Origin: Candidatus Omnitrophota bacterium
GTDB lineage: Bacteria; Omnitrophota; Gorgyraeia; Duberdicusellales; 4484-171
Assembly (NCBI GenBank): GCA_003154195.1
Contig: PMCS01000031.1
Coordinates: 18,054-82,053, forward strand
Length of the DNA: 64,000 nt
Direction: 5' to 3'
Part shown: in pieces, positions 2,644 to 32,245 of the stretch
How the letters are laid out: the number at the start of each line of letters is the position of its first letter
Numbering within the stretch: the stretch's first letter is position 1
Program-made: the position numbers and the translations under genes
Notes under the pieces: generated by a model
What the model saw: only the letters and a program-made list of their open reading frames with translations
Told to the model about the DNA's origin: nothing
Databases searched by the model: none

Positions 2644-3084
2644 TCATTGACTCAAATTGCCCACACTGCCTAAAGTCTCTACTTCCACCGATGACGTGAT
2701 TGACGTCTGGTTCTGGATCTTTTCTTCGCCGCCGCCGCGATGCATGACGCTGGTGGAATCACTGCCGGTGATCTGGGTGTTGCGGTATTGCTGGTTGTAG
2801 ATAGAGATGTTGCTCGCAGTATCCCTTAGTCGAGATACCCCCCCTGGGGCCAAAGCATCGATAGCGTCGCCGCTAAAGTCGCTGGAAAGCGCCGACGCAC
2901 CCGCGCCATCCTCTATTCTTGCACCCACCGCAGCATGACCAAGCAAATCCACTGTCTGGGCGCCTTTTTTGCGCATCCCGGCTTTCAGCGCCGCGCCTAA
3001 GACTCCCGTGACCACCGCGATGATCAAGCCTAACGTAATCGCGTATTCCGCTGTTGACTGCGCTTTTCTTAATCTTACAAGCAT
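2644..3084 (-). CDS. Flp-family pilin paralog (long form, conserved C-terminal block)
   Basis: Trimmed to MLVRLRKAQSTAEYAITLGLIIAVVTGVLGAALKAGMRKKGAQTV. The C-terminal ~55 aa (NISIYNQQYRNTQI...VGNL) are shared with the 3844 and 4546 paralogs. Confidence 0.75.
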   Translation of the reverse strand: MLVRLRKAQSTAEYAITLGLIIAVVTGVLGAALKAGMRKKGAQTVDLLGHAAVGARIEDGAGASALSSDFSGDAIDALAPGGVSRLRDTASNISIYNQQYRNTQITGSDSTSVMHRGGGEEKIQNQTSITSSVEVETLGSVGNLSQ

Positions 3085-3187
3085 TATTGTCACCCCCTCA
3101 ATGAACACATTATTTTTTCCCCGCCCCAAGGCGGGACTCCGCTTACACTTCGCAAGCTGAAAGCGCAGAAAAAATAATAGTGTGAAT

Positions 3188-3843: not shown

Positions 3844-4248
3844 TCATTGAGTCAAGTTGCCCACACTGCCTAAAGTCTCTACTTCCACCGATGACGTGCT
3901 TGATGTCTGGTTCTGGATCTTTTCTTCGCCGCCGCCGCGATGCATGACGCTGGTGGAATCACTGGCGCTGATCTGGGTGTTACGGTACTGCTGGTTGTAG
4001 ATAGAGATGTTGCCGGCGGAGGAGCTTAAAACAACGCCTCCCGAGTCGCCTACCGAGCTTACCGCAATACCAGTACCATCTTCCTTCTCCACCCCGGAAC
4101 CCCCCAACAACTCCACTGTCTGGGCGCCTTTTTTGCGCATCCCGGCTTTCAGGGCCGCGCCTAAGACTCCCGTGACCACCGCGATGATCAAGCCTAAGGT
4201 AATCGCGTATTCCGCTGTTGACTGCGCTTTTCTTAACCTTACCAACAT
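3844..4248 (-). CDS. Flp-family pilin paralog (long form)
   Basis: Trimmed to MLVRLRKAQSTAEY.... The N- and C-terminal blocks are near-identical at nucleotide level to 2644..3084 and 4546..4959, with a divergent middle. Confidence 0.75.
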   Translation of the reverse strand: MLVRLRKAQSTAEYAITLGLIIAVVTGVLGAALKAGMRKKGAQTVELLGGSGVEKEDGTGIAVSSVGDSGGVVLSSSAGNISIYNQQYRNTQISASDSTSVMHRGGGEEKIQNQTSSTSSVEVETLGSVGNLTQ

Positions 4249-4320
4249 CCTTCTCACCCCCTCAATGAGACTTGGCCGAGCGCGCATGCTGCGCATGTGC
4301 AGCGAGGCCGTAGTCGAATT

Positions 4321-4545: not shown

Positions 4546-4959
4546 TCACTCGGTCAAGCAGCCCACACTGCCTAAAGTCTCTACTTCCACCGATGACGTG
4601 CTTGATGTCTGGTTCTGGATCTTTTCTTCGCCGCCGCCGCGATGCATGACGCTGGTGGAATCACTGCCGGTGATCTGGGTGTTACGGTACTGCTGGTTGT
4701 AGATAGAGATGTTGCCGCCGCCGGCTAAATGAATGCCGTTGGTGTTAGTGTCGAGGCCCTCAGCGAGCGCTCGATCGCCGCTATCATCGCCGGTAGCGGC
4801 ATCTTTAAGCAAATCCACTGTCTGGGCGCCTTTTTTGCGCATCCCGGCTTTCAGGGCCGCGCCTAAGACTCCCGTGACCACTGCGATGATCAAGCCTAAA
4901 GTGATCGCGTATTCCGCTGTTGACTGTGCTTTTCTTAACCTTACCAACATCCTTCTCAC
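4546..4959 (-). CDS. Flp-family pilin paralog (long form)
   Basis: MRRMLVRLRKAQSTAEYAITLGLIIAVVTGVLGAALKAGMRKKGAQTVDLL..., with a conserved C-terminal block. Confidence 0.75.
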   Translation of the reverse strand: MRRMLVRLRKAQSTAEYAITLGLIIAVVTGVLGAALKAGMRKKGAQTVDLLKDAATGDDSGDRALAEGLDTNTNGIHLAGGGNISIYNQQYRNTQITGSDSTSVMHRGGGEEKIQNQTSSTSSVEVETLGSVGCLTE

Positions 4960-6310: not shown

Positions 6311-7753
6311 TTAAAGAAGAAAAATTCTCTTATTATCCAAATAAAATCCTTCTTTATTAAAAGCATCTTTGAGGGTGCGGGAAATATCTTTTACGATTAT
6401 CTTATAAAAGTTCTTGCCGACGGCCAGGTAACCGGCCGCGTCGGGCGACGATGCCGCCGTCGGTACCGGCGGCGCCGGCATTTTGCGGTTGAACGCGGCG
6501 GCTAAAATATTTTTAATCTCGATAAAATCCTCCGCTTTAGCGAGGGGAATTTTTTTCGCCGGCATTGGGTAATCGGCGATCCCGGGCGCCGGGCTGCCTT
6601 TAAAAAAATTTTCAAATATTTCCAGGTCATCCGGGAATTTTTTTTCCGGAAACGGCCAGAAATATAAATAGTTGCCCAGTAAAGGCAGAAAATCTTTCCG
6701 GTCCGTCATAAAACACCATACGGGAAGGGCCTTTTTCTTGCGAAAAACCGGAATATTATTGACGATAATACCCCGGCTGTCTTTATCCCGGGAGAACCTG
6801 GCTAAAGCGGAAGCGTAAAAAAAATCCTGCCCCGCCGGAGAAGGTATTTTTTTAATTCTTGTTTGCCGGCTTAAATAAGCGGCACCCTGGGATAAAAATC
6901 TGGGATGATAACCGACAAAAAAAGAAGTTTTGACGGGCGCGGGAAAAGATATTTTTTCCCACGCTTCGCCGGCAGGGCTGAGGAATTCTATTTCTTTTAC
7001 GCCCTTCGTCAAGCCGTTTAAAAAATCCAAAGCTAAGGGCGAAAGATAACCGAAACTTTTCGTATAATTTACCAGAACGGCCTTTGCCGAAAGCATCCGG
7101 GTGATGATTTCTTTCGCCCGCGTTAACGGTGCGCTAAAATTTCCCATCGGGCAATCGCCCCGCCAAAACGTCGTCATCGCGGCGTCGCAATAAGAAACCG
7201 CGCCGCCCTCAAAATAAAATTTTATCGTCCTTGTTTCTTTGCGGGTTTCTTTAAATCCCGCTAAATCTAATTGGAGGTTTGCCGCCGGCAGGGTTTTTAA
7301 AAATTCGTTTATTTTGCCCAGGGACAGATGGCCAAGCCCGGCTGCCCGTAAGAATCCCCGGGCCGCGATATTTTCTTTCAGGCCCAGAGCGGGAACCCGG
7401 AAAACCAGTAAACCGGTGATCTTGCGCAGGAGGTCTTCCTCGAACTGAGGGAAAAACGGCTTGAGGGAAGAAACTGCGTAATCAATAAGGCCGAACTTTG
7501 AATCGAAGCCGCGCAGGAGGAGGGGAAAACAATCATAGTTTTCCCCTTTTTTATAAAGGGTAATCGATTTTTTGCGCCCCTTCCTTTCTTTTACGCCGCG
7601 AGAAGAAAAAATATTCTGGATTGAACTTTTGGAGAGCTTGATCTTGTGTTTTTCGTCTAAAAACCGGGACAACGCCCTTACCCCCAGATAAGGGTTTTTC
7701 TTTCTTGCGCTGATGATTAAACTACGCACCCGCGGATTTATCTTGGCCCGCAC
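6311..7753 (-). CDS. Hypothetical 480-aa protein with N-terminal helix-turn-helix-like segment
   Basis: The N-terminus NPYLGVRALSRFLDEKHKIKLSKSSIQNIF looks HTH-like and the rest is unrecognised. It sits between the tad ATPase and the pilin array. Domain fold and function are not assignable from sequence alone. Confidence 0.3.
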   Translation of the reverse strand: MRAKINPRVRSLIISARKKNPYLGVRALSRFLDEKHKIKLSKSSIQNIFSSRGVKERKGRKKSITLYKKGENYDCFPLLLRGFDSKFGLIDYAVSSLKPFFPQFEEDLLRKITGLLVFRVPALGLKENIAARGFLRAAGLGHLSLGKINEFLKTLPAANLQLDLAGFKETRKETRTIKFYFEGGAVSYCDAAMTTFWRGDCPMGNFSAPLTRAKEIITRMLSAKAVLVNYTKSFGYLSPLALDFLNGLTKGVKEIEFLSPAGEAWEKISFPAPVKTSFFVGYHPRFLSQGAAYLSRQTRIKKIPSPAGQDFFYASALARFSRDKDSRGIIVNNIPVFRKKKALPVWCFMTDRKDFLPLLGNYLYFWPFPEKKFPDDLEIFENFFKGSPAPGIADYPMPAKKIPLAKAEDFIEIKNILAAAFNRKMPAPPVPTAASSPDAAGYLAVGKNFYKIIVKDISRTLKDAFNKEGFYLDNKRIFLL

Positions 7754-10227: not shown

Positions 10228-11817
10228 TTATTTCCTTTCGCGGTAAACAATGGGAATATCGATTCTTAATTCTTTAAGTTCAACCTGCGCCGGGAAAGGA
10301 GGATAAACAAGCTTCTGCACCAGCCTGAGCGCGGCCTCGTCAAATACCTTATACCCCGATGTCTGCGCCACATAGGCGTCTTTTAATTGGCCGACATCGT
10401 CAAGGATGAGTTTGACCAAAACGTTTCCCTGCCAGCCGGTATTTACCAGTTCGAGGGGATAACTGATATTATCGGTAATCTTTTTTTGAATCGCTAAAGC
10501 GTAATCCTGAAGCTCAAAAGGAATGCTTCTCATTGTTTCCATAGCGTCGGACTCTTTCTCTTCTTTTTTAATTTCTTTAGCCGGGGCGGCTTGTTTTTCT
10601 CCGGCTTTTTCCATACCCGCCGAATAAACAATCCTGGGCGTTAGGGTGATATAGAACTCCGCGTCGTTGTTAAAGGGCATGCTTTTATGCCGGAAGAATG
10701 CGCCTAAAATAGGCGTATCCGACAGCCAGGGAAACTTGGCGATAGCTTCCTCTGTTTTCTTTCTGATTAAACCGCCGATGGCGATGGTTTCGCCGTCGGC
10801 CATATAAATTTGCGTGGAAACACTGCGGTTAAGCGTCGGGTAGGCCTTGGCCGTAGTCGAAGAGCCGCTGCTGATCGATTCCGCCGCCTCGAGGTCGGTA
10901 ACCGATATCTTCAACATCACGTTTATTTTGCCCTTTTTATCCACCACCGGGCTGATTGAAAGATTTATGCCGTAAGGTTTATATTCAACGGTCGTACCGG
11001 CGCCGCCGCCAATTGAAGTAATATTGGTATTAAAAATCGGTTTTTCTCCGCCTACCGTGATCTCCGCGGTTTTACCGCTTTGACAGGTCACCCGGGGCCG
11101 GGAAAGGATTCTCGCCTTACCTTCGGTTTCTAAAAGATCGAGCGAGTAACTAAAGCTGTCGCCGGAACGGCCATATTGTCCCAACTTATAAAATTCTGCG
11201 AAATGGCCCAGGGAATTCCTATCCGTGGGCAAAGTTTCACCGATACCGGTGTTGCTCGGGAAATTAAAACCGAGGCTGCGGGTAGCATCGTGGCTCAGCT
11301 CCAGCACTTCCACGGCGATCTCGATCAAAACATCTTCATCCGCCTCCACGATAAAATCCCCGATTTTAGCCTTATAAGCCGCTAAAATAGCCATTAATTT
11401 TTCTTTTTCCTGTTTCTTAAGTTCGCCGAAAAGAAAAACTTTATCCTCGCTGTCCATCGCCTTTACGGTAATCGCGTCCATGCCCAATTCCTTCAAAACT
11501 TTCTCGATTTTATTTTTAAGCGCGGTCATTTCTTCCGCGTAAACTTTTACGTCAAAATTATGTTCACCGAAAGCGTCCCACCATTGAAGCTTTGCCTCCC
11601 CCTTGGCTTTCGCGACCAGCACCAGTTCTTTCTCGCTGGCGGAAACTACGTCCAGGATTTCCGGTCTGCTTACCGAAATCCTTTGGGGATTGTTGACCGG
11701 TATCACCTGCGTATCGCCCACATAAAAAATAAGAGCGGAAAGATCGTAGCGATCTGCGGCAGGCAGCGATAAAGGCGACATCAAACAGGCAGTAAGAAAA
11801 ATAATTATCGTTTTCAT
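10228..11817 (-). CDS. Tad secretin (CpaC/RcpA-like) with C-terminal TonB_C-like domain
   Basis: Signal peptide, then the secretin core (GETIAIGGLIRKK...FPWLSDTPILGAFFRHKS...FYITLTPRIV). This is followed by ~110 aa matching the TonB C-terminal fold pattern (ISYPLELVNTGWQGNVLVKLILDDVGQL...SGYKVFDEAALRLVQKLVYPPFP). Confidence 0.75.
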   Translation of the reverse strand: MKTIIIFLTACLMSPLSLPAADRYDLSALIFYVGDTQVIPVNNPQRISVSRPEILDVVSASEKELVLVAKAKGEAKLQWWDAFGEHNFDVKVYAEEMTALKNKIEKVLKELGMDAITVKAMDSEDKVFLFGELKKQEKEKLMAILAAYKAKIGDFIVEADEDVLIEIAVEVLELSHDATRSLGFNFPSNTGIGETLPTDRNSLGHFAEFYKLGQYGRSGDSFSYSLDLLETEGKARILSRPRVTCQSGKTAEITVGGEKPIFNTNITSIGGGAGTTVEYKPYGINLSISPVVDKKGKINVMLKISVTDLEAAESISSGSSTTAKAYPTLNRSVSTQIYMADGETIAIGGLIRKKTEEAIAKFPWLSDTPILGAFFRHKSMPFNNDAEFYITLTPRIVYSAGMEKAGEKQAAPAKEIKKEEKESDAMETMRSIPFELQDYALAIQKKITDNISYPLELVNTGWQGNVLVKLILDDVGQLKDAYVAQTSGYKVFDEAALRLVQKLVYPPFPAQVELKELRIDIPIVYRERK

Positions 11818-19102: not shown

Positions 19103-21841
19103 TTATTGTTCCTGCCAGGTGGGAACGGAACTAGTGGTAAGGTTGAAATAGGAACCGCCGCGGTCAATACTGGTAGAGTTATCATCAAGATAAACGTAGC
19201 CGCTCATTTTGATGTTGTTGCCTAAAATCGCTACGCCGGTCTGGCTGCTGCCGCTGGGCGGGCAATCATTGTCAGTAGCGCAAAGGCTGTTAAAGGTAAC
19301 ATTGCCGGCTTGGGTATAAAGCAAGCCGGCCAGGGTTCTACGCCGGGCAGTTAAAAAAGGCGTGGTGTCGTTGGCCGGAGCGGTAGAGTAGATACTGCCA
19401 AACTGGCTGGCTAAAAGAGCTCGGGCGCTGCTACCAGTATCGGCACGTAATTCTATACGGTTATCGCCGACCAGGCCGATATCGCGCTCAGTGGCAAAAC
19501 TTTTTGTTTTTAAGGAGACGGTGCCGCCGGAAGAATCAAATACCAGCCCTGCCGCCACATACCAGTTCTCGGCATTGTTGGAACCGCCGGAAACGTAATG
19601 AGCAAGCTGGACTTCGTCGGTATCCAACCAGTCCACGCTGCGGTCGAGAATTGCGGCATATTTGTTATCCGGATTCAAAGTCTGTCCTAACATGCGCTCG
19701 TAAAAAACAATATCGTTATAATCCAGTTGTCCGGAGGAGATACTGGAGATCACCGCCCATTCACCGTTGCTCCAATTACCGTTAAGCGAATAATTCTTCA
19801 GCGCTTCGCCATCCATCGCCGTGGGACTTCTAAAAAAATTGCTGTCCGCGGTCATGCTGATCGGACCGCTGGTAGCTAAGTTAAGCTGGAACATCACATC
19901 CGGCTCGGATGGCGGCTGCCACGCCCCTCCGCTTACGCGATAGGTGTGCGAACCATATTTATATCCGGCGGCGGCTAAATTATAATACTTGTTGGTAGCC
20001 TGGGGAACGGCATCCCAGACCAGCCAGTATTTTGTATCATAATTTAAAACAACGCTGGAGTTGAAATTAGCGCTGACGGACGTAGCAGCATTGGGTGACT
20101 TATACTGTGCCGTGCCTAAAATTGTGCCGGAAGGGCCGCTGTAATAATTAGTTTTCGTATGTAAAGCATCGCTTTGCAGCCATACTCCGCTGACGCTAGA
20201 AACAGGAAGATGACTCGGGTTTACGCTGACATGCGTCACATCCGTTGATGTCCGCAATTCATCCGACCACGAACTACCCCCGCTGGAATAGTTAATGCGT
20301 ACCGGGGTATTTGCCCCGGGCAACCCGGTCGGTAAAGTCAGGATACCGGTAGACGCGACAAACGAACCACCGTCTCTTTGAATAGTTACCGTAATCCAAT
20401 CATTAGTGGGGTTGTTGGTGTCCAAACGGTGATATGTGGTTATGCCGGTAACAGTAGTAGACGGCCACCATGGCCGGATCATAAACGCCTCGGCACAATC
20501 GTATTCGTTGTTAGCAATATCGCCCAAAGGCATAGGAAGAGAACGGTTATAAATACGGCTCTGGTTAGCGCCGGCCTGCACGGTAGTGCCCTGGCGGATC
20601 TCAAAAAGCAATTCGGGTTCATCTTGCCGGTCATTAGTATCCCAAGCCTGACTCGGCGGCCGGAATAACAGGCTTTGCGGGCCGTTATAATAACCGGCGC
20701 GGACAGTGTAGCGGGTTTCCGGCTGCTCGGTAGCCGTATCATTCAACACTAACCAGTAAGTCGCGCCTTTGTTAAGGGTTACGCTGGAAGTTAAATTAAC
20801 CGTGTTCCAGCTGGAAGGCGCCGGCGTATAGGTCTTAGTCGCCGAAGCCGATACCGGCGCGTTAGGTGTATTACTGCCGGCGTTATTATTATAAATACTT
20901 AAGGTAACATTGCCCTGGGGAATGAAATAGTTCGGGCCGTGCATGACCCTGACATTATCAACAACGTAAGTGCCACTGCCGGCGACGTTAAACGACTGGC
21001 CAAGATCGTTATTGACCAACCACATATTGCCCAGGTTAAAGGTGGCAAAACATACCCGCAAGTTACGGTCCATTGCCTGCGCTTTCTGGAGGACAGTCGG
21101 ATGCGGCGCGCCGGGATCAGGCCAATAACAAGAATCACTAGCATTGTTACATAGCCAGTCTAAATTTATCGCGGGGTAATTGGGATTGCCGGTGCGCGTA
21201 GGCGCGGGACTGAAAGAACTGCCGCAAGGCGGCAGAGGATTGGTATCATTACGATAATCAACGCCGGCTTCGTTACGTAACACGTCGCCGTCGCGCTCAA
21301 AACCGTAAGTACCGTTAGAGGTAATATTGCCTACGGAAATATTGCCGTCAAAGCGTGAATTATACATCCCTCCGGGGGTGTTTACTCCCGACCAATCAAA
21401 ATCTTTATAAGCATAGAGCAAGGAATTCAAGACAAAAGTTGAATTGCTGCTGCCCACAGTTTGTTGGATTTTGCGTTGGCCAAGACAATTGGCACCGCCG
21501 CACGCGCTCTGCGACGGCACGTAACCGGTAGAAACAATCGTAGACCCGCTGCAAATAACGTTATATTCTCCGGCGGGGAAAGTATGGTTAACCGTCAAAC
21601 TGCCGCCGCCGGCGCAGGTAGCGTTCTTTTGCGCCCAGCGGGCACCGGCTTCGGCTACGTAGAGTGCCTTTTCCGAATCGGACATGCGGGAACCCATCTC
21701 TAAATTCGTGGAAACGAGGCCGGCCAGTGTCCAGGCTAATACGCCCAGCACCAGCATAATCATTATCACAATAATCAGGCTGATCCCCGGCCTTTTAAAA
21801 ATAATCTGTGAATTTTTTTTAGCTGTGGCTTTGTTTTTCAT
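19103..21841 (-). CDS. Large (912 aa) PilX-N-like minor pilin / pilus-associated adhesin
   Basis: Its N-terminus KRPGISLIIVIMIMLVLGVLAWTLAGLV resembles the PilX N-terminal domain. The long Ser/Thr/Asn/Gly-rich extracellular region is predicted beta-rich. It is the first gene of the minor-pilin operon. Confidence 0.55.
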   Translation of the reverse strand: MKNKATAKKNSQIIFKRPGISLIIVIMIMLVLGVLAWTLAGLVSTNLEMGSRMSDSEKALYVAEAGARWAQKNATCAGGGSLTVNHTFPAGEYNVICSGSTIVSTGYVPSQSACGGANCLGQRKIQQTVGSSNSTFVLNSLLYAYKDFDWSGVNTPGGMYNSRFDGNISVGNITSNGTYGFERDGDVLRNEAGVDYRNDTNPLPPCGSSFSPAPTRTGNPNYPAINLDWLCNNASDSCYWPDPGAPHPTVLQKAQAMDRNLRVCFATFNLGNMWLVNNDLGQSFNVAGSGTYVVDNVRVMHGPNYFIPQGNVTLSIYNNNAGSNTPNAPVSASATKTYTPAPSSWNTVNLTSSVTLNKGATYWLVLNDTATEQPETRYTVRAGYYNGPQSLLFRPPSQAWDTNDRQDEPELLFEIRQGTTVQAGANQSRIYNRSLPMPLGDIANNEYDCAEAFMIRPWWPSTTVTGITTYHRLDTNNPTNDWITVTIQRDGGSFVASTGILTLPTGLPGANTPVRINYSSGGSSWSDELRTSTDVTHVSVNPSHLPVSSVSGVWLQSDALHTKTNYYSGPSGTILGTAQYKSPNAATSVSANFNSSVVLNYDTKYWLVWDAVPQATNKYYNLAAAGYKYGSHTYRVSGGAWQPPSEPDVMFQLNLATSGPISMTADSNFFRSPTAMDGEALKNYSLNGNWSNGEWAVISSISSGQLDYNDIVFYERMLGQTLNPDNKYAAILDRSVDWLDTDEVQLAHYVSGGSNNAENWYVAAGLVFDSSGGTVSLKTKSFATERDIGLVGDNRIELRADTGSSARALLASQFGSIYSTAPANDTTPFLTARRRTLAGLLYTQAGNVTFNSLCATDNDCPPSGSSQTGVAILGNNIKMSGYVYLDDNSTSIDRGGSYFNLTTSSVPTWQEQ

Positions 21842-21858
21842 AAGGAATTTTTTTATTT

Positions 21859-22422
21859 TCAGCTTCTCGGAGTAACCAGATAATTGACGCTGAACGTTTC
21901 TTTGGTAACCGGATTGCCGACTGTAACATTCATACCGATCATAGAAATATTGCTGATATTACCCGCAATACCAGCGGTAATATCATAACCGGTATTATTA
22001 TAATACCGGAAAGAAAAATTAGCCAGTTCCGCGAGAAGAATATTTGACGACTCAAATGTTCCGTCGCTGGCGCTGTCGATTTCATAATAAAGGCGCTTAT
22101 TGGCCGGAATAGACAGGCCATCGTAGCGATACCTATTGGTAGCGCTTCCCACAGTATACGCAATCATGGTAGCGTTTGTGGTACTCTGGATTGCCGACGC
22201 CGACAAAGAAATACCGCGCAGATCGCGCGCCATCCGCAGCACTGCCATACGGGCGTCATTGACGATGTCGCTTCTAAAAGTAGTAAAATTCCACACGTCC
22301 ATCGCCTGTTTTATAAAAGAGCCGAGCCCCACGCATAAGACTCCCACAATCACAATTACCGTCACCAGTTCGATTAAAGTAACGGATTTTTTAGAATATT
22401 TGAGAAATGTTAAAATTTTCAT
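21859..22422 (-). CDS. Type IV minor pilin (PilW-like), prepilin N-terminus
   Basis: KKSVTLIELVTVIVIVGVLCVGL is a prepilin-type N-terminal helix with Glu at +5. Confidence 0.65.
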   Translation of the reverse strand: MKILTFLKYSKKSVTLIELVTVIVIVGVLCVGLGSFIKQAMDVWNFTTFRSDIVNDARMAVLRMARDLRGISLSASAIQSTTNATMIAYTVGSATNRYRYDGLSIPANKRLYYEIDSASDGTFESSNILLAELANFSFRYYNNTGYDITAGIAGNISNISMIGMNVTVGNPVTKETFSVNYLVTPRS

Positions 22423-22433
22423 TGAAGTATAGT

Positions 22434-22901
22434 TTAAAATATCGTAAACAACACCGCCTTACTGCCGGATTTAGATACCGTGACATTTACCATTTTGTAA
22501 AGATCGGCGGCATTATCAGTAGTATTCCATTGGTTCACGGAAACATTGCAATAACGCACAACCACGCTCTTGGTAAAACCATCGCTGGCGTTGGCCGTTT
22601 TCTGGCGATACTCAGTTACATTAGTAGTCACGTTGCTGTAGTTGTCCCATCCGGGCAAAAACTGGGAAAACCGTGAATAATTACTTATGTTAGAATACCC
22701 CTGGGTGATTACGCTTTCCATCACTTGTTCGGCGGAAAAAGCCGCGCTTACTTCATTTTCGCTGAATCTCACCCGGCGCGTGGTTTCGCTTAAAAAACTC
22801 ATCAGGGTGGAAACGGCTATCCCCATCACGATGATTATCGCAACGAGTTCCATCAGGGTAACGGACTTGTGCAAAGATTTTAGAAATTTTAGTTTTTTCA
22901 T
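22434..22901 (-). CDS. Type IV minor pilin (PilV-like)
   Basis: ORF 22434..22985 trimmed to MKKLKFLKSLHKSVTLMELVAIIIVMGIAV.... It has the prepilin N-terminal helix. Confidence 0.6.
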   Translation of the reverse strand: MKKLKFLKSLHKSVTLMELVAIIIVMGIAVSTLMSFLSETTRRVRFSENEVSAAFSAEQVMESVITQGYSNISNYSRFSQFLPGWDNYSNVTTNVTEYRQKTANASDGFTKSVVVRYCNVSVNQWNTTDNAADLYKMVNVTVSKSGSKAVLFTIF

Positions 22902-23095
22902 TGACCACGCATATTTTGTTATACTGTAGGGGCCGACCCCTGTGCTCGCCTTGCCGAGCCATCGACTTCGCCGATATGCGAGCAAGGCGAGGCAGGTCGG
23001 CCCGCTATAATTTATTTATTAGCAATCAGCAAACATCCTTTCTCGCCTTGAATTTAACATATTTCCCAAAGATAAAAAAAAGTAATTATCTATCT

Positions 23096-23140
23096 GCGAT
23101 CATCAGCTTCTTCTCATCGGTGATCATCTGCATTTTACCG
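23096..23140. repeat. Short repeat family D (TCTTCTCATC-GTGATCATCTG)
   Basis: gatcatcagcttcttctcatcggtgatcatctg; second copy at 52240-52290. Confidence 0.4.
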
Positions 23141-23659
23141 CGCGGTGATCCTGGCCGTCTGGGGGGTTACGCTTATGGTTATATCGTCAAAATCGTGATA
23201 CCGTAAGACAACATTCCCCGTTACAGTAATATTATTGCCGTTAGCGTCTTCCGGTATCCCCTGCCAGTCAAATCGTAAACTTGGGGTGCCGCCGAAACTA
23301 ACATTCGCTAAGATATCGATACCGGCATATTGCGCATCGGTGCGATAATCCGTAACCATCGAACTATGGGTAAAAGGGTCACGCAAAGACGTACTGTTAG
23401 CCGTATATATAACACTATAGCTGTCGGAGGCGGGAGTAAACGCAACGGTTATGTTGACATGCTTGGAGATGGCTATATTCTGGGCGTATCGGATATCGGA
23501 AACTAATTTTTTCGCCGCGGCGTGAAATTTTATATTATAAAAAACTTCCACGCGCGGGATAGCCACTACCGCTAAGATTCCAATGATCACCATTACCATT
23601 ACCAATTCGACCAGAGAAAGGGCGAGTTTTTTTGAGCGAATGGCATGGGAGTTAATCAT
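23135..23659 (-). CDS. FimT/GspH-like minor pilin
   Basis: KKLALSLVELVMVMVIIGILAVVAIP followed by KKLVSDIRYAQNIAISKHVNITVAF (GspH/FimT motif). The 3' end of the ORF overlaps intergenic repeat D, so the true stop may be earlier. Confidence 0.65.
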   Translation of the reverse strand: MINSHAIRSKKLALSLVELVMVMVIIGILAVVAIPRVEVFYNIKFHAAAKKLVSDIRYAQNIAISKHVNITVAFTPASDSYSVIYTANSTSLRDPFTHSSMVTDYRTDAQYAGIDILANVSFGGTPSLRFDWQGIPEDANGNNITVTGNVVLRYHDFDDITISVTPQTARITAR

Positions 23660-23728
23660 CTTTGTGGGGTAGTTTACACTGCAAAATAAAAACGTAAATT
23701 TAATTATTTTTTGCCGCGCAAAAAATAA

Positions 23729-25669
23729 TTACCGGGGATAACCGTTGTCGGAAGACAGCCTCCCGATACGCTCGATCGCCCTCTCGATGAGGTCTCTTAA
23801 CCGCCGCGCTTCTGCGTCCTTACCTTCCGCGTCGGCTCTGATTTTTTTCTTTTCTTCATCAACCACGGGCGCGCTTTTTTGCGCCAGCTCATCGCGTAAT
23901 TGATAAAGCAGCACGTTTTTCTCTTCCAGTTCTTTAGTCAACGAATCAAACTTTTCTTTATAAGCGTCGACGGCGGAAGATGATTTACCTTTCGCGCCGG
24001 ATTTCGCCCGCTCTCTTAATTGCGTTTCCCGCTCCAGAGACGCGGCAAGTTTACCTTCAAGTTCTTTAATCCTGTTTTCCCAATCCGCCGCTTCACTGCC
24101 CCCCTTACCGGGCCCGGCGCTTTCACTCTTTTTGCGGCGAAGTTTATCGATGTCTTCTTTCAACTGCGCTTCCCGGTCCAGAGACACCGCGAGCTTGCGT
24201 TCGGCCTCCCGCAAGTCGCCTTCCTTTTCTTTAAGCTGGGTTTTCAGGCGCGATAAATCCTGCCCATCTCCGGAACCTTCACCCTTCTTTTTCTTGAGCC
24301 GGTCGATTTCATCTTTTAAAGCTGCCTCTTTATCTTTTTGCGCGTTAAGCCGGCGCTGGGTTTCCGCGTGAGCGTCTTCCTTTTCCTGGAGCTGTTCTTT
24401 GAGGCGCGCGATTTCCTGGGCGGCCCGGGAATCGTTGCTCTTCTTTTTATCAATTTTCTCCGCTTCATCTTTCAGCGCGAGCTCTCTCTCTTTAACTTCG
24501 TTAAGCCGGCGCTGGGTTTCCGCGTGAGCGTCTTCCTTTTCCTGGAGCTGTTCTTTGAGGCGCGCGATTTCTTCGGCGGCGGCTTTTCCTTTAGCCAGGT
24601 CTGCTTCGCCGGCTTTATTTTCTTTTGATTTACCCACCTCATCTTTTAGCCGCGCTTCCCGGTCCAGGGACGCTGCGAGTTTATCTTCGTTATCCTTAAG
24701 GGAGCTTTCTTTTTCTTCCAGCCGGGCTTTCAGGCGCGATAATTCTTCGGCTCCTTCGGAACCGGCGCTGGCTTTTTCGCTAAGCTTATTCATCTCTTCT
24801 TTAAGCTGCGCCTGATCATCAACTGCCTCAGCAAGCTTGCGTTTCGTCTCCTTAAGCTCGTTTTCTTTTTCTTCCAGCCGAGATTGCATCCCGGAAATTT
24901 CTTCGGATTTTGCCTCCAGCTCTTGAGTCAATTGTCTTAATTTCTTATCATTGACGACATTGGCTTTAAGGGCTTTTATTTCTTTCTGGCAGGAAGCAAG
25001 ACTGTCGTTAAGCTCCTGGACTTTTTCTTTATCCTCCCGGCTCGTCCCGGCCTGCTTCTTCAGGCTTTTCAAGTCGTCCTGAAGGCGCATCTGGCTGTCG
25101 AGAGATTTGGACAATTGCTCTTGAACGTCGGCCAATTCCGTTTCTTTTTCTTTTAATCTCTCCGCTAAGGCTTTCTCCTTTTCCCGGGATGACGGTTCGC
25201 CTCCGGAAGGCTGCTTTTGTAAATCCTGCGACAATTTCGCCTCCAGCAGCTGACGGTTCTGTTCCTTAATTGTATTAAGGCGGGATTTCAATTCTTTAAT
25301 TTCGCTGTTTTTGTCTTCCAGCTGTTCGTTTAATTCATTGAGCCTTTTTTCAGAAACAGGCTTACCGGTTTTGCCCGCGGGGTATTTTCGCTCCTCTCCT
25401 TCTTTTCTGGCCGCTTCCCAGCGTTTTTTTAAACGCTCGATTTCCCGGTCTTTCCCTTCCAGGGCGGCGGAGATATCCGCTTTTTCCTGCTGTAATTGGA
25501 CAAATTCTTTACGCAGCCGGTCGATTTTGGTATTTTCTTTGTTAATCGAACTCTCTAAAGATTTTATCTTCGACATGAGCTCTTCTTCAATATTGTAGGC
25601 GAAAGACGGCAGGGCAAACAGAAGCAGGCATACAAAAACGGCGCATAGTATTTTACCTATTTTACTCAT
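23729..25669 (-). CDS. Membrane-anchored long coiled-coil protein (646 aa) with internal repeats
   Basis: N-terminal signal/anchor, then E/K/L/R-rich heptad-like sequence. A 52-aa unit (AAQEIARLKEQLQEKEDAHAETQRRLN...) is duplicated. The nucleotide direct repeat is ~156 nt (about 24340 and 24497). Confidence 0.5.
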   Translation of the reverse strand: MSKIGKILCAVFVCLLLFALPSFAYNIEEELMSKIKSLESSINKENTKIDRLRKEFVQLQQEKADISAALEGKDREIERLKKRWEAARKEGEERKYPAGKTGKPVSEKRLNELNEQLEDKNSEIKELKSRLNTIKEQNRQLLEAKLSQDLQKQPSGGEPSSREKEKALAERLKEKETELADVQEQLSKSLDSQMRLQDDLKSLKKQAGTSREDKEKVQELNDSLASCQKEIKALKANVVNDKKLRQLTQELEAKSEEISGMQSRLEEKENELKETKRKLAEAVDDQAQLKEEMNKLSEKASAGSEGAEELSRLKARLEEKESSLKDNEDKLAASLDREARLKDEVGKSKENKAGEADLAKGKAAAEEIARLKEQLQEKEDAHAETQRRLNEVKERELALKDEAEKIDKKKSNDSRAAQEIARLKEQLQEKEDAHAETQRRLNAQKDKEAALKDEIDRLKKKKGEGSGDGQDLSRLKTQLKEKEGDLREAERKLAVSLDREAQLKEDIDKLRRKKSESAGPGKGGSEAADWENRIKELEGKLAASLERETQLRERAKSGAKGKSSSAVDAYKEKFDSLTKELEEKNVLLYQLRDELAQKSAPVVDEEKKKIRADAEGKDAEARRLRDLIERAIERIGRLSSDNGYPR

Positions 25670-30433: not shown

Positions 30434-32245
30434 TTAGAAATTATAGGCAACGCTTAATTTATACCACCTTCCCGCGGCGTCGATATCCTGGATTTCCTGA
30501 TATTTTTTATTAAAAATATTCGTCCCTTCTATCGCCAAAGTAAACTGTTTCATCTCCCGCGTCAGTTTTAAATCAAAAGTTTCGTAACTACTCCGTCCGG
30601 CGGGCTTGGAAAAATTACTTATAAAATTTAAATTGAACAATTTTAAATCAAAATCCAGCGCGCCGACAAACTTATGGCGTAAATAATCAAAAACATACTT
30701 AGAAAAGTTATACGGACTTTCTTTGCTTAAATCCTGATAAGTATAACCGAAAGATATTTTATTTAAAATTTTACCAATTGCGGCGTCAATGCTCACGTCA
30801 AAACCGCTAACCGAAACATCCCCCACATTGGCCGCCTGCCAGACTGCGGTGAGGGAATCTTTTCCCCAATCGACCGTATTAAATTGTTTACGTAAAAAAG
30901 TATCGGCGGAAATATTGGCGTTCTTAGTGAAAGCGTAAGCAAAACCCCATTGAAAATTATTAGACTTTTGAATCTTCAAATCATCCCTTCCCCGGTTGGA
31001 TGGATCGCTGTAGTAGAGTTCAGTGAAGGAAGGCGGACGCCAAATTCGGTCAAAATTAAACGCGAGTTTTAGATTTTGCGCCGCGTCATAATTTAAAGCG
31101 AAATGGCCGTTTTCCAAAAAATGCCTTTTTTGAAAATAATCCAGGCCGCCGAAAACGCTCAAGCCAATTTGTCCGAACTTTTTATCGCGTAAGCCGAATT
31201 GCCCGCCGTACTTTTCCCGGCTGTGTTTTTTCAGGTTAGTGCTGTTAATCCGTTCCTGCTCGATAGCGGAACCGGCGAATAAACCATTCTCCGACTTAAG
31301 CTCGAGGTTATCGCCATAAACATAAGTCGTATGGTAATTAGTGGGGGAGAAAGGATCATGACGGTCTAAAATAAATTTGTCCTTGTGGTGGCGCAAATAC
31401 AAATTATTATTTATTTCAAAATCATTGAATTTTTTTAACCCCCGGAGCAGGAAAAACTTTTGCCGGGTATGTTCTTCCTCCTGGCGGTAACGGGAAAGCG
31501 ACGAATAAAAACTGTCCGCGCCGAAATCGCGCACACTGGAACCGAACAAAAATTCAACCTCTTTATCGTTATCGCTGCCGCGCCAAAAATCATGGCAGGA
31601 AAAATTATAGGTCTCGAAATCAGTATCCGGCCTTGCCCCGCTCGATATTTTATGCTCAATCGATAACCGGTTTTTAATATTTTTAAAGACGAAATTAGTG
31701 GAAAACAGCTTTTCCCACAGCGCGTGCTCACCAAAACCTACTTTTAAAAGCGAACCACGGTCTCGCGGCGCCTTAGGAATAAAATTTATACTCTGGGAAT
31801 TTTTAAAGATCTGCGCCCGGTCGATATCGGCTTCGGTAAAAGGGATCTCTAAACTGAAATGGCCGGTTTGCGGGTCGTTGATCTTAACTCCGGCTAATTG
31901 GACATCGGCGTCTTCGAAGGTTGCCCCGCGCAACGACACATCCTGCTGAATCCCGAAACCGGAGCGCCGGCGCAATTCCACGCCCGAAGAATACCCGATG
32001 GTTTCCTCAATCGAACCGTAAGGTTTATCCTGCGACGATATATTTTCTTTCGCGTCAACGAGGCGGCCGGAATATTCTTTTTCGATTGTAATCGGCTCAA
32101 GGTCGACGCTTTTGGCGAGAGCCCTGAACGGTAGAAGCAATATCGCCGCTAAAAACGAAATCGCCGGAATCAGCGAAAAAATCCGGTAAATATTTTTTTT
32201 AATAGTTAACATCGTAAAAACAAAATTCTCGTCCACAGATTTCAC
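30434..32245 (-). CDS. TonB-dependent outer-membrane receptor-like protein
   Basis: Signal peptide, a plug-like motif (DVSLRGATFEDADVQLAGVKINDP) and a C-terminal ...KLSVAYNF (terminal aromatic). It is upstream of thiM/thiE, so it may import thiamine or a precursor (inference). Confidence 0.6.
   Translation of the reverse strand: MKSVDENFVFTMLTIKKNIYRIFSLIPAISFLAAILLLPFRALAKSVDLEPITIEKEYSGRLVDAKENISSQDKPYGSIEETIGYSSGVELRRRSGFGIQQDVSLRGATFEDADVQLAGVKINDPQTGHFSLEIPFTEADIDRAQIFKNSQSINFIPKAPRDRGSLLKVGFGEHALWEKLFSTNFVFKNIKNRLSIEHKISSGARPDTDFETYNFSCHDFWRGSDNDKEVEFLFGSSVRDFGADSFYSSLSRYRQEEEHTRQKFFLLRGLKKFNDFEINNNLYLRHHKDKFILDRHDPFSPTNYHTTYVYGDNLELKSENGLFAGSAIEQERINSTNLKKHSREKYGGQFGLRDKKFGQIGLSVFGGLDYFQKRHFLENGHFALNYDAAQNLKLAFNFDRIWRPPSFTELYYSDPSNRGRDDLKIQKSNNFQWGFAYAFTKNANISADTFLRKQFNTVDWGKDSLTAVWQAANVGDVSVSGFDVSIDAAIGKILNKISFGYTYQDLSKESPYNFSKYVFDYLRHKFVGALDFDLKLFNLNFISNFSKPAGRSSYETFDLKLTREMKQFTLAIEGTNIFNKKYQEIQDIDAAGRWYKLSVAYNF

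Follow-up and report, generated by a model that had tools for sequence, protein, structure and literature searches.

The closest described relatives of the protein considered here are the outer-membrane secretins of the Tad (type IVc) pilus, the RcpA/CpaC type, which are represented structurally by the RcpA-TadD complex (8ODN) and by the secretin of Acidithiobacillus caldus (8JVB/9WFD). These have a T2SS-T3SS_pil_N β-domain and a secretin core, and their operon partners are CpaB/RcpC, TadZ- and CpaF-type ATPases, TadB/C and Flp-like pilins. RcpA assembles into 13-14-mers, its C-terminus is located at the periplasmic face of the barrel, and the last 4-5 residues of its short tail bind the lipoprotein pilotin TadD, a tetratricopeptide repeat (TPR) protein needed for RcpA assembly and localisation (PMC10499894). 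We describe here a secretin gene with the same two domains and the same kinds of operon partners in a 64,000-nucleotide stretch of DNA (hereafter the window) from a Candidatus Omnitrophota bacterium (contig PMCS01000031.1, positions 18,054 to 82,053). It differs from canonical RcpA at its C-terminus: in place of the short tail, the secretin and its relatives carry a tether of 20 to ~175 residues followed by one or two 96-residue TonB_C domains. The operon departs from the canonical Tad arrangement as well: it has no called TadD-like gene, TadZ is fused to CpaF, and its first gene encodes a lipoprotein peptidyl-prolyl isomerase (PPIase).

The interval 10228-11817, for which the first-pass annotation gave exact bounds but left the strand unstated, coincides exactly with a single minus-strand open reading frame (ORF), comprising 529 codons and a stop; in the plus-strand translation stops occur throughout and the frame is closed. 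The start codon overlaps the cpaB stop as ATGA, and a similar hydrophobic N-terminal segment is present in all homologues of the fusion protein. There is a discrepancy in start assignment at 11782-11817 (minus strand), where a 100% identical database copy (P0001, present in JGI/ENA metagenomes) has been called 12 residues shorter, at 517 aa. This shorter start would delete the signal peptide, and the ATG at 11817, which overlaps the cpaB stop, restores a normal one.

The greater part of the protein is a secretin of the Tad type. The N-terminal domain matches T2SS-T3SS_pil_N (PF13629) at residues 32-92 (E 2.6e-8, 33.9 bits against a cut-off of 23) and is modelled by AlphaFold2 as all-β, with a predicted local distance difference test score (pLDDT) of 93-96; Secretin_N, STN and AMIN have no Pfam match in this protein. 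It is followed by a second periplasmic domain with helices at residues 97-111 and 135-151 and strands at 117-133 and 152-158 (pLDDT 86-93), for which there is only a faint Pfam match, to Yop-YscD_ppl_2nd (E 0.056). The Secretin profile (PF00263) aligns to residues 228-397 over positions 1-168 of 169 (E 9e-37, 126.7 bits), and the core ends, as had been proposed, with the sequence FYITLTPRIV, at residue 399. Sequence matches in the PDB are to 8jvb (1.7e-31) and to RcpA in 8odn (7.5e-25), and a Foldseek comparison of the whole AlphaFold model against the PDB groups it with the secretins of A. caldus (9wfd/8jvb) and with Pseudomonas aeruginosa RcpA (8odn). The full-length model is that of a monomer, built on a 45-sequence alignment, and its β-barrel core is modelled with moderate confidence. 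GspD, PilQ and other secretin equivalogs in NCBIfam give core-only matches that fall far under their own cut-offs. The protein is thus a Tad pilus outer-membrane secretin of the RcpA/CpaC type. A liposecretin of the self-piloting HxcQ type was considered and ruled out, as the lipobox Cys of an 'LTAC' sequence is not conserved in 44 homologues.

The core is joined to the C-terminal domain by 34 residues rich in K, E, P and A, the stretch that had been taken for a low-complexity linker, and pLDDT is below 50 at residues 404-424 of the full model. Among 45 homologues this linker varies between 20 and 77 aa with no sequence conservation, and its composition is 15.5% K, 13% E, 11.6% P and 10% A. 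The remaining residues were predicted at the outset to form a TonB_C-like domain, and profile searches bear this out: TonB_C (PF03544) matches residues 450-526 with 50 bits against a gathering cut-off of 24.6 (E 4.1e-13), TIGR01352 tonB_Cterm scores 43 bits against 27.1, and TonB_2 matches residues 437-515 with 22.5 bits against 22. The match to TonB_C is far beyond chance, and the TonB pattern peptide quoted in the first-pass annotation is found at residues 451-509. Structure prediction agrees. The domain is modelled with high confidence both within the full protein and alone (pLDDT 91.8, predicted template-modelling score 0.80), and in Foldseek searches the model overlays solved TonB C-terminal domains at a root-mean-square deviation (rmsd) of 1.5-2.8 Å. 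Among these are the domains of Helicobacter pylori (6sly, TM score 0.76-0.77) and Neisseria meningitidis (9dc4_T, 1.5 Å), the Escherichia coli BtuB:TonB and FhuA:TonB complexes (2gsk_B and 2grx_C, both 2.0 Å) and more generally TonB bound to FoxA, BtuB and FhuA (2.0-2.5 Å); FusB (7zc8) was also matched. The C-terminal domain is therefore a genuine TonB-fold domain carried on a disordered tether.

The domain is nearly always 96 residues long across the 45 homologues, and the conserved positions are Y439, I447, Y453-P454, G464, G476, S487-G-Y489, D493 and A496, together with Y505-P-P-F-P509, P522 and Y525. The elements with which TonB binds the TonB box are kept, namely the YP motif, the SSGY...D..A helix and a final β-strand of the form (I/V)P(I/V)xY. 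The domain is as conserved as the core, and its identity to homologues is as high as that of the whole protein, which indicates that it is under constraint.

Despite the common fold, YP motif, SSG...D..A helix and TonB-box-pairing C-terminal strand that the domain has with TonB (H. pylori 6SLY, E. coli 2GSK/2GRX), and a K/E/P-rich spacer that recalls TonB domain II, the protein is not a TonB. It has a signal peptide and secretin domains at its N-terminus and no TonB membrane anchor, which rules out a true TonB identity. It also lacks the ExbB/ExbD-binding segment, and at the loci inspected there is no exbBD neighbourhood: no ExbB/ExbD/MotA-type match was obtained among the 61 window ORFs scanned, and no exbB or exbD is found among the called genes of five loci with the fusion (L001-L004 and L087). 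Moreover, the attachment of the domain to an outer-membrane protein reverses the topology. The name 'TonB family protein' assigned by NCBI is misleading on each of these grounds, the missing anchor, the missing exbBD and the reversed topology. TolA is ruled out too, with TolA_full scoring 19.3 bits against a cut-off of 59.45 and TolA domain III structures matching clearly worse, at 4-5.8 Å.

The fusion had been described as an unusual architecture, which holds in comparison with every characterised secretin but does not extend to its being a one-off. A homologue search over 5.8 billion proteins returned 427 matches, and the best 120 of these all combine PF13629, PF00263 and PF03544, with 36-48% identity over 93-100% of the length. 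They are labelled 'pilus assembly protein CpaC' or 'TonB family protein', and their taxon-specific names are all Candidatus Omnitrophica/Omnitrophota, with one named only 'bacterium'. The GTDB was scanned with one genome per species, using two secretin-core peptide patterns with confirmation by the C-terminal domain alone, and at least 159 species genomes encode the fusion; the best 80 of 159 are metagenome-assembled genomes (MAGs) or single-amplified genomes (SAGs) of Omnitrophota or bear the labels 'uncultured Planctomycetia/Planctomycetales', 'bacterium' or 'uncultured bacterium'. The Planctomycetia/Planctomycetales labels on MAGs are presumed to be placeholder taxonomy. Named fusions among the matches listed carry Omnitrophota, generic 'bacterium' or these same uncultured labels, and named secretin fusions among the more divergent matches listed are from Omnitrophota, including 'Ca. 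Zapsychrus exili'. Across Omnitrophota, this secretin takes the fused form as standard, and the fusion is old and maintained. Tad complexes have been stated to be absent from family 4484-171 (Seymour et al., PMC10066038); contrary to that statement, a protein (P0007) and a locus (L015) of 'Omnitrophica bacterium 4484_171' encode the secretin-TonB_C fusion.

Gene order around the secretin is equally constant. Transcription on the minus strand proceeds in the window through the PPIase, CpaB/RcpC, the secretin, a TadZ-CpaF fusion, a 480-aa protein and the pilins, with CpaB translationally coupled to the secretin. CpaB lies directly upstream of the secretin at all 77 loci that reach that far, and the order PPIase, cpaB, secretin is preserved at each of the 74 extending far enough upstream, with a lipobox in the PPIase in at least 70 of them (consensus ...GC[D/E]K, with G-C-D/E-K invariant). 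The five inspected loci also have the TadZ-CpaF fusion (711-720 aa) downstream of the secretin, pilins likewise come after it in loci with gene calls, and two T2SSF genes (TadB/TadC) are present in L002 and L004 and absent from the window. From the PPIase gene to the downstream end of the operon, no TPR (TadD-like) gene is called in any of the five operons.

The TonB_C domain is not confined to one copy or to secretins. An exhaustive phmmer search of 1.84 billion cluster representatives, with the C-terminal domain as query, gave 3526 matches at E<=1e-3 and 192 at E<=1e-10, of which the top single-domain matches are secretin-TonB_C proteins. Shorter top matches (~200-320 aa) were considered as possible stand-alone TonBs, and all six inspected are fragments of secretin fusions. 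There are two kinds of departure from the single-domain form. The first is a secretin with two tandem TonB_C domains, seen in P0125, P0127, P0132, P0139, P0268 and the SAG locus L076; P0139 has window-like synteny, and in it ~175 E/K-rich residues separate the core from the first TonB_C. The second is a family of TolC-like outer-membrane efflux (OEP) proteins (PF02321) with two to six N-terminal TonB_C domains (P0158, P0199, P0218 and P0265). The fusion is present in 11 of 11 clusters of this family, its named members are from Omnitrophota, and P0199 heads an operon for resistance-nodulation-division (RND) efflux beside a giant ORF of >4373 aa. Repeated tethered periplasmic modules outside the TonB system are found both here and in BlaR1-type Peptidase_M56 proteins with TonB_C repeats; the M56 proteins, however, are inner-membrane sensors, and the OEP fusions bear the domain at the N-terminus of a different outer-membrane channel.

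A substitute for a pilotin or a peptidoglycan anchor was the putative role suggested at the outset for the TonB_C domain, and it is plausible. We favor a broader reading, with a probability of about one half, in which the domain is a tethered periplasmic docking or anchoring module generic to outer-membrane channels, with peptidoglycan or a β-strand motif as its putative partner. In a secretin ring of ~13-14 subunits, an equal number of tethered TonB_C modules would form a crown directly beneath the outer membrane, each a passive docking hook and not an energy transducer. The C-terminal domains of TonB and TolA bind their targets by β-strand addition (PMC12204202), and the module may likewise capture an exposed 'TonB-box-like' β-strand of an envelope partner; alternatively, it may bind peptidoglycan. 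Such docking would take over from the TadD/S-domain system in positioning or anchoring the channel or in aiding its assembly, and the tether and TonB_C domain do begin directly behind the secretin core, which is where RcpA has its TadD-binding tail/S-domain. A generic, avidity-type envelope anchor is preferred over a fixed-geometry contact with one Tad component, since the module occurs on two unrelated outer-membrane channel families with variable copy number (one or two in secretins, two to six in TolC-like proteins) and variable tether length (20 to ~175 aa). The lack of both a TonB membrane anchor and an ExbBD context indicates that the secretin-TonB_C protein is not by itself an energy transducer.

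Several points weigh against a docking or anchoring role. First, the domain is not notably basic, with a median isoelectric point of 6.5, and basic charge as a hint of peptidoglycan binding therefore gives no signal. Second, the sole basis for peptidoglycan binding by TonB C-terminal domains is one older report, reportedly that of Kaserer and colleagues in J Bacteriol in 2008. Third, the conserved lipoprotein PPIase might make the question of a pilotin moot. Fourth, L001 and L004 encode a 756-aa TPR protein, with its gene two positions upstream of the PPIase gene, such that a TPR pilotin encoded nearby or elsewhere is conceivable.

The docking interpretation can be extended to the phylum, although only tentatively and with considerable doubt. 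Omnitrophota may have turned the TonB_C domain around, tethering it on outer-membrane channels (one or two copies on secretins, two to six on TolC-like proteins) as a system that docks the outer membrane to the wall or inner membrane and that replaces pilotins, and perhaps classical tethers, in ultra-small and probably host-dependent bacteria. This would imply direct contact between TonB domains and secretins elsewhere, for example between TonB3 and PilQ.

Other known peripheral modules, which are peptidoglycan-linked, tie a secretin to the cell wall or envelope and aid in placing or assembling it; they are analogous in role only. They include the AMIN domains of PilQ, the LysM protein TsaP that forms a ring around PilQ (6VE2) and ExeA/ExeB for ExeD (PMC4098917, PMC5285504). 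Their folds are unrelated, and the modules are N-terminal or separate proteins, unlike the TonB_C domain of the fusion secretin.

A secretin-specific explanation, which we consider unlikely, is that the TonB_C domain has succeeded the S-domain and binds a dedicated assembly factor for outer-membrane targeting and multimerisation, thereby replacing or recruiting a pilotin. The PPIase encoded two genes upstream would be the most obvious candidate partner, with neighbouring subunits as an alternative. Consistent with this, the domain begins where RcpA has its TadD-binding tail, no TadD-like TPR gene is called within the five operons, and the PPIase is always the first gene; pilotins, like the PPIase, are lipoproteins (PMC10499894), and the PPIase is a candidate for a dedicated chaperone or pilotin-like factor of this Tad system. 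However, TonB_C domains are also present two to six times on TolC-like proteins, which have no pilotins, and variability in both copy number and tether length fits poorly with a 1:1 chaperone contact. In addition, no TonB-box-like motif was recognised in the PPIase, and the secretin has no lipobox of its own and so is not a liposecretin.

Still less probable is that the domain acts as a coupling device, binding either the TonB box of outer-membrane proteins that resemble TonB-dependent transporters or a β-strand in a Tad component of the inner membrane or linked to a motor. Transporters would then be clustered around the pilus machine, or the secretin linked to an energised partner in a topology the reverse of that in TonB/TolA. 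The TonB-box-binding strand and YP motif are conserved, and a 603-aa Plug-domain protein encoded in the window has the TonB-box-like sequence 'LEPITIE' at its N-terminus, although its Plug match is a weak one, at 23.4 bits where the cut-off is 23.9, and thiamine genes surround its gene at a distance of 19 kb. The ~175-residue E/K-rich tethers of some relatives are long enough to cross the periplasm, but the tether in the window has only 34 residues. A precedent is PocAB-TonB3 of P. aeruginosa, in which a TonB paralogue is required for the assembly and localisation of type IVa pili; this provides a functional, still unexplained link between a TonB-type C-terminal domain and the secretin machine of a type IV filament, and a contact between TonB3 and PilQ has been speculated upon (PMC5285504). 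TonB3, however, is a separate, inner-membrane-anchored and motor-associated protein, whereas in the fusion secretin the domain is covalently attached; the fusion could offer 'Rosetta-stone' support for a direct contact between TonB domains and secretin complexes. Against coupling also stand the lack of exbB/exbD near any of the five loci and the consideration that a domain fixed to the outer membrane cannot by itself transmit energy from the inner membrane.

The remaining alternative, that the fusion arose through mis-assembly or a frameshift where two genes join, or that low-complexity sequence matches TonB_C spuriously, has a negligible likelihood: annotation is not uniform, with one gene caller using the later start of P0001, but the TonB_C score is twice the Pfam cut-off, the predicted fold is confident and matches solved TonB domains, secretin core and TonB_C lie in one unbroken reading frame at 84 of 84 independent loci from many assemblies, and all 120 protein clusters listed have the identical architecture, such that the conservation data refute both chance and artefact.

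We found no description of the secretin-TonB_C fusion in a full-text literature search, whose coverage is incomplete, nor of the TolC-like architecture in the literature. The paper on Omnitrophota Tad genes, which includes an RcpA phylogeny, mentions neither 'secretin' nor TonB (PMC10066038), and secretins and Omnitrophota are both absent from a 2025 survey of TonB/TolA evolution. What is new is therefore a Tad secretin with a TonB_C appendage in reversed topology, together with its TolC-like counterpart; the proteins themselves are already public under automatic names. Omnitrophota are thought to attach to hosts or prey by means of Tad pili (PMC10066038), and the fusion offers a concrete candidate for a module that provides secretin assembly or envelope retention without a TadD-type pilotin. 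It also suggests that outer-membrane channels can carry, as a passive appendage, the TonB C-terminal fold that normally forms the tip of an energy transducer in the inner membrane; this redeployment bears on the evolution of TonB/TolA-type domains and on outer-membrane tethering. Finally, the automatic name 'TonB family protein' on secretins and TolC-like proteins can mislead surveys that count TonB systems. A 2026 preprint (10.64898/2026.06.07.730766) describes 'TonB-domain' genes flanking giant ORFs beside Omnitrophota pilus cassettes, and these may be mis-named secretin or OEP fusions.

Table 1. Positions of the secretin-TonB_C gene, its parts and its neighbors in the window, and of related features in other loci (named by locus).
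Feature	Position	Strand	Basis
Whole gene, Tad-type secretin with TonB_C fusion	10228..11817	-	ORF list; Pfam PF13629 + PF00263 + PF03544
Signal peptide, ~residues 1-21, MKTIIIFLTACLMSPLSLPAA|D	11755..11817	-	direct sequence reading; cleavage site by eye
N-terminal β-domain, CpaC/RcpA type, residues 29-93	11539..11733	-	Pfam T2SS-T3SS_pil_N; AlphaFold2, all-β
Second periplasmic α/β domain, secretin N-ring-like, residues 97-158	11344..11529	-	AlphaFold2 secondary structure
Secretin core, residues 163-399, ending ...FYITLTPRIV	10621..11331	-	Pfam Secretin; PDB; Foldseek
Disordered tether, residues 400-433, K/E/P/A-rich, 34 aa	10519..10620	-	pLDDT; homologue alignment
TonB-type C-terminal domain, residues 434-529, α-β-β-α-β	10231..10518	-	Pfam; TIGR01352; AlphaFold2; Foldseek
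Lipoprotein PpiC-type peptidyl-prolyl isomerase, SurA-N-like region, 313 aa	13015..13956	-	Pfam Rotamase_2 6.2e-16
CpaB/RcpC alignment-complex protein, 364 aa	11814..12908	-	Pfam RcpC 2.9e-18 + SAF
Fused TadZ/CpaE-like ParA/MinD domain and CpaF/TadA ATPase, 722 aa	7969..10137	-	Pfam
Conserved 480-aa protein after ATPase	6311..7753	-	no significant Pfam match
Pilin-like gene cluster, 7 copies of N-terminal segment	1995..6057	-	ORF translations; repeat family
Counterparts of the 480-aa protein	L001 14370-15950; L002 15040-16482; L003 13765-15201; L004 9967-11946; L087 14399-16126		
Secretins with tandem TonB_C	L076 1577-3517; L087 9001-11394		
TolC-like proteins with TonB_C	P0199, L085 8001-10076; P0265, L086 3320-6871; also P0274-P0283		

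The remaining genes of the operon (Table 1) have features of their own. CpaB has a conserved C-terminal 'VEIYRG' motif, and the pattern '(V/I)x(I/V)xRG' precedes its tail. A β-hairpin of RcpC binds the N-domain of RcpA (PMC12307814), and the motif is probably the equivalent hairpin docking on the secretin N-domain; the motif was also considered as a ligand of the TonB_C domain, and this was set aside in favor of the canonical hairpin as the simpler explanation. The CpaB of the window has, in addition, a ~35-aa low-complexity insertion of E/K/Q/P and a long P-rich C-terminal tail, both absent from four orthologues. In the fused ATPase, AAA_31/CbiA/ParA matches fall at residues 2-210 and T2SSE at residues 370-648 (E 5e-63). 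Counterparts of the 480-aa protein (478-659 aa), sometimes preceded by a DUF192 gene, follow the ATPase in the five inspected loci and have no significant Pfam match, with one giving a weak match to HTH_Tnp_Tc3_2.

The N-termini of the pilin-like proteins have the sequence 'RKAQ(S/G)xxEY' followed by a hydrophobic helix. They resemble archaeal class III signal peptides, and there are weak matches to Class_IIIsignal (PF04021) in L002 and L087. Three larger paralogues in this cluster (2644-3129, 3844-4296 and 4546-4959) have near-identical ends and variable middles. Two types of conserved intergenic repeat are present: one of 77-90 nucleotides in five copies (at 1902, 2544, 3576, 4436 and 5255), and one of 85 nucleotides containing an inverted repeat in three copies (at 3170, 4302 and 5002).

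A profile built from the C-terminal-domain family found no second TonB_C in the six-frame translation of the window, the rest of which is of a housekeeping nature (GlnS, and thiamine, Fe-S, ETF and purine genes) and also encodes TamB. The Plug-domain protein is encoded at 30434-32245 (minus strand) and adjoins thiE/thiM; its 'LEPITIE' sequence follows the signal peptide, and it may be a small TonB-dependent transporter. A second filament cluster at 19103-25669 (minus strand) contains a 912-aa protein with a weak PilX_N match and a GspH-like pseudopilin (23135-23659), alongside several ORFs without assignment; its content suggests a set of minor pilins of the type IVa or type II secretion system (T2SS) kind.

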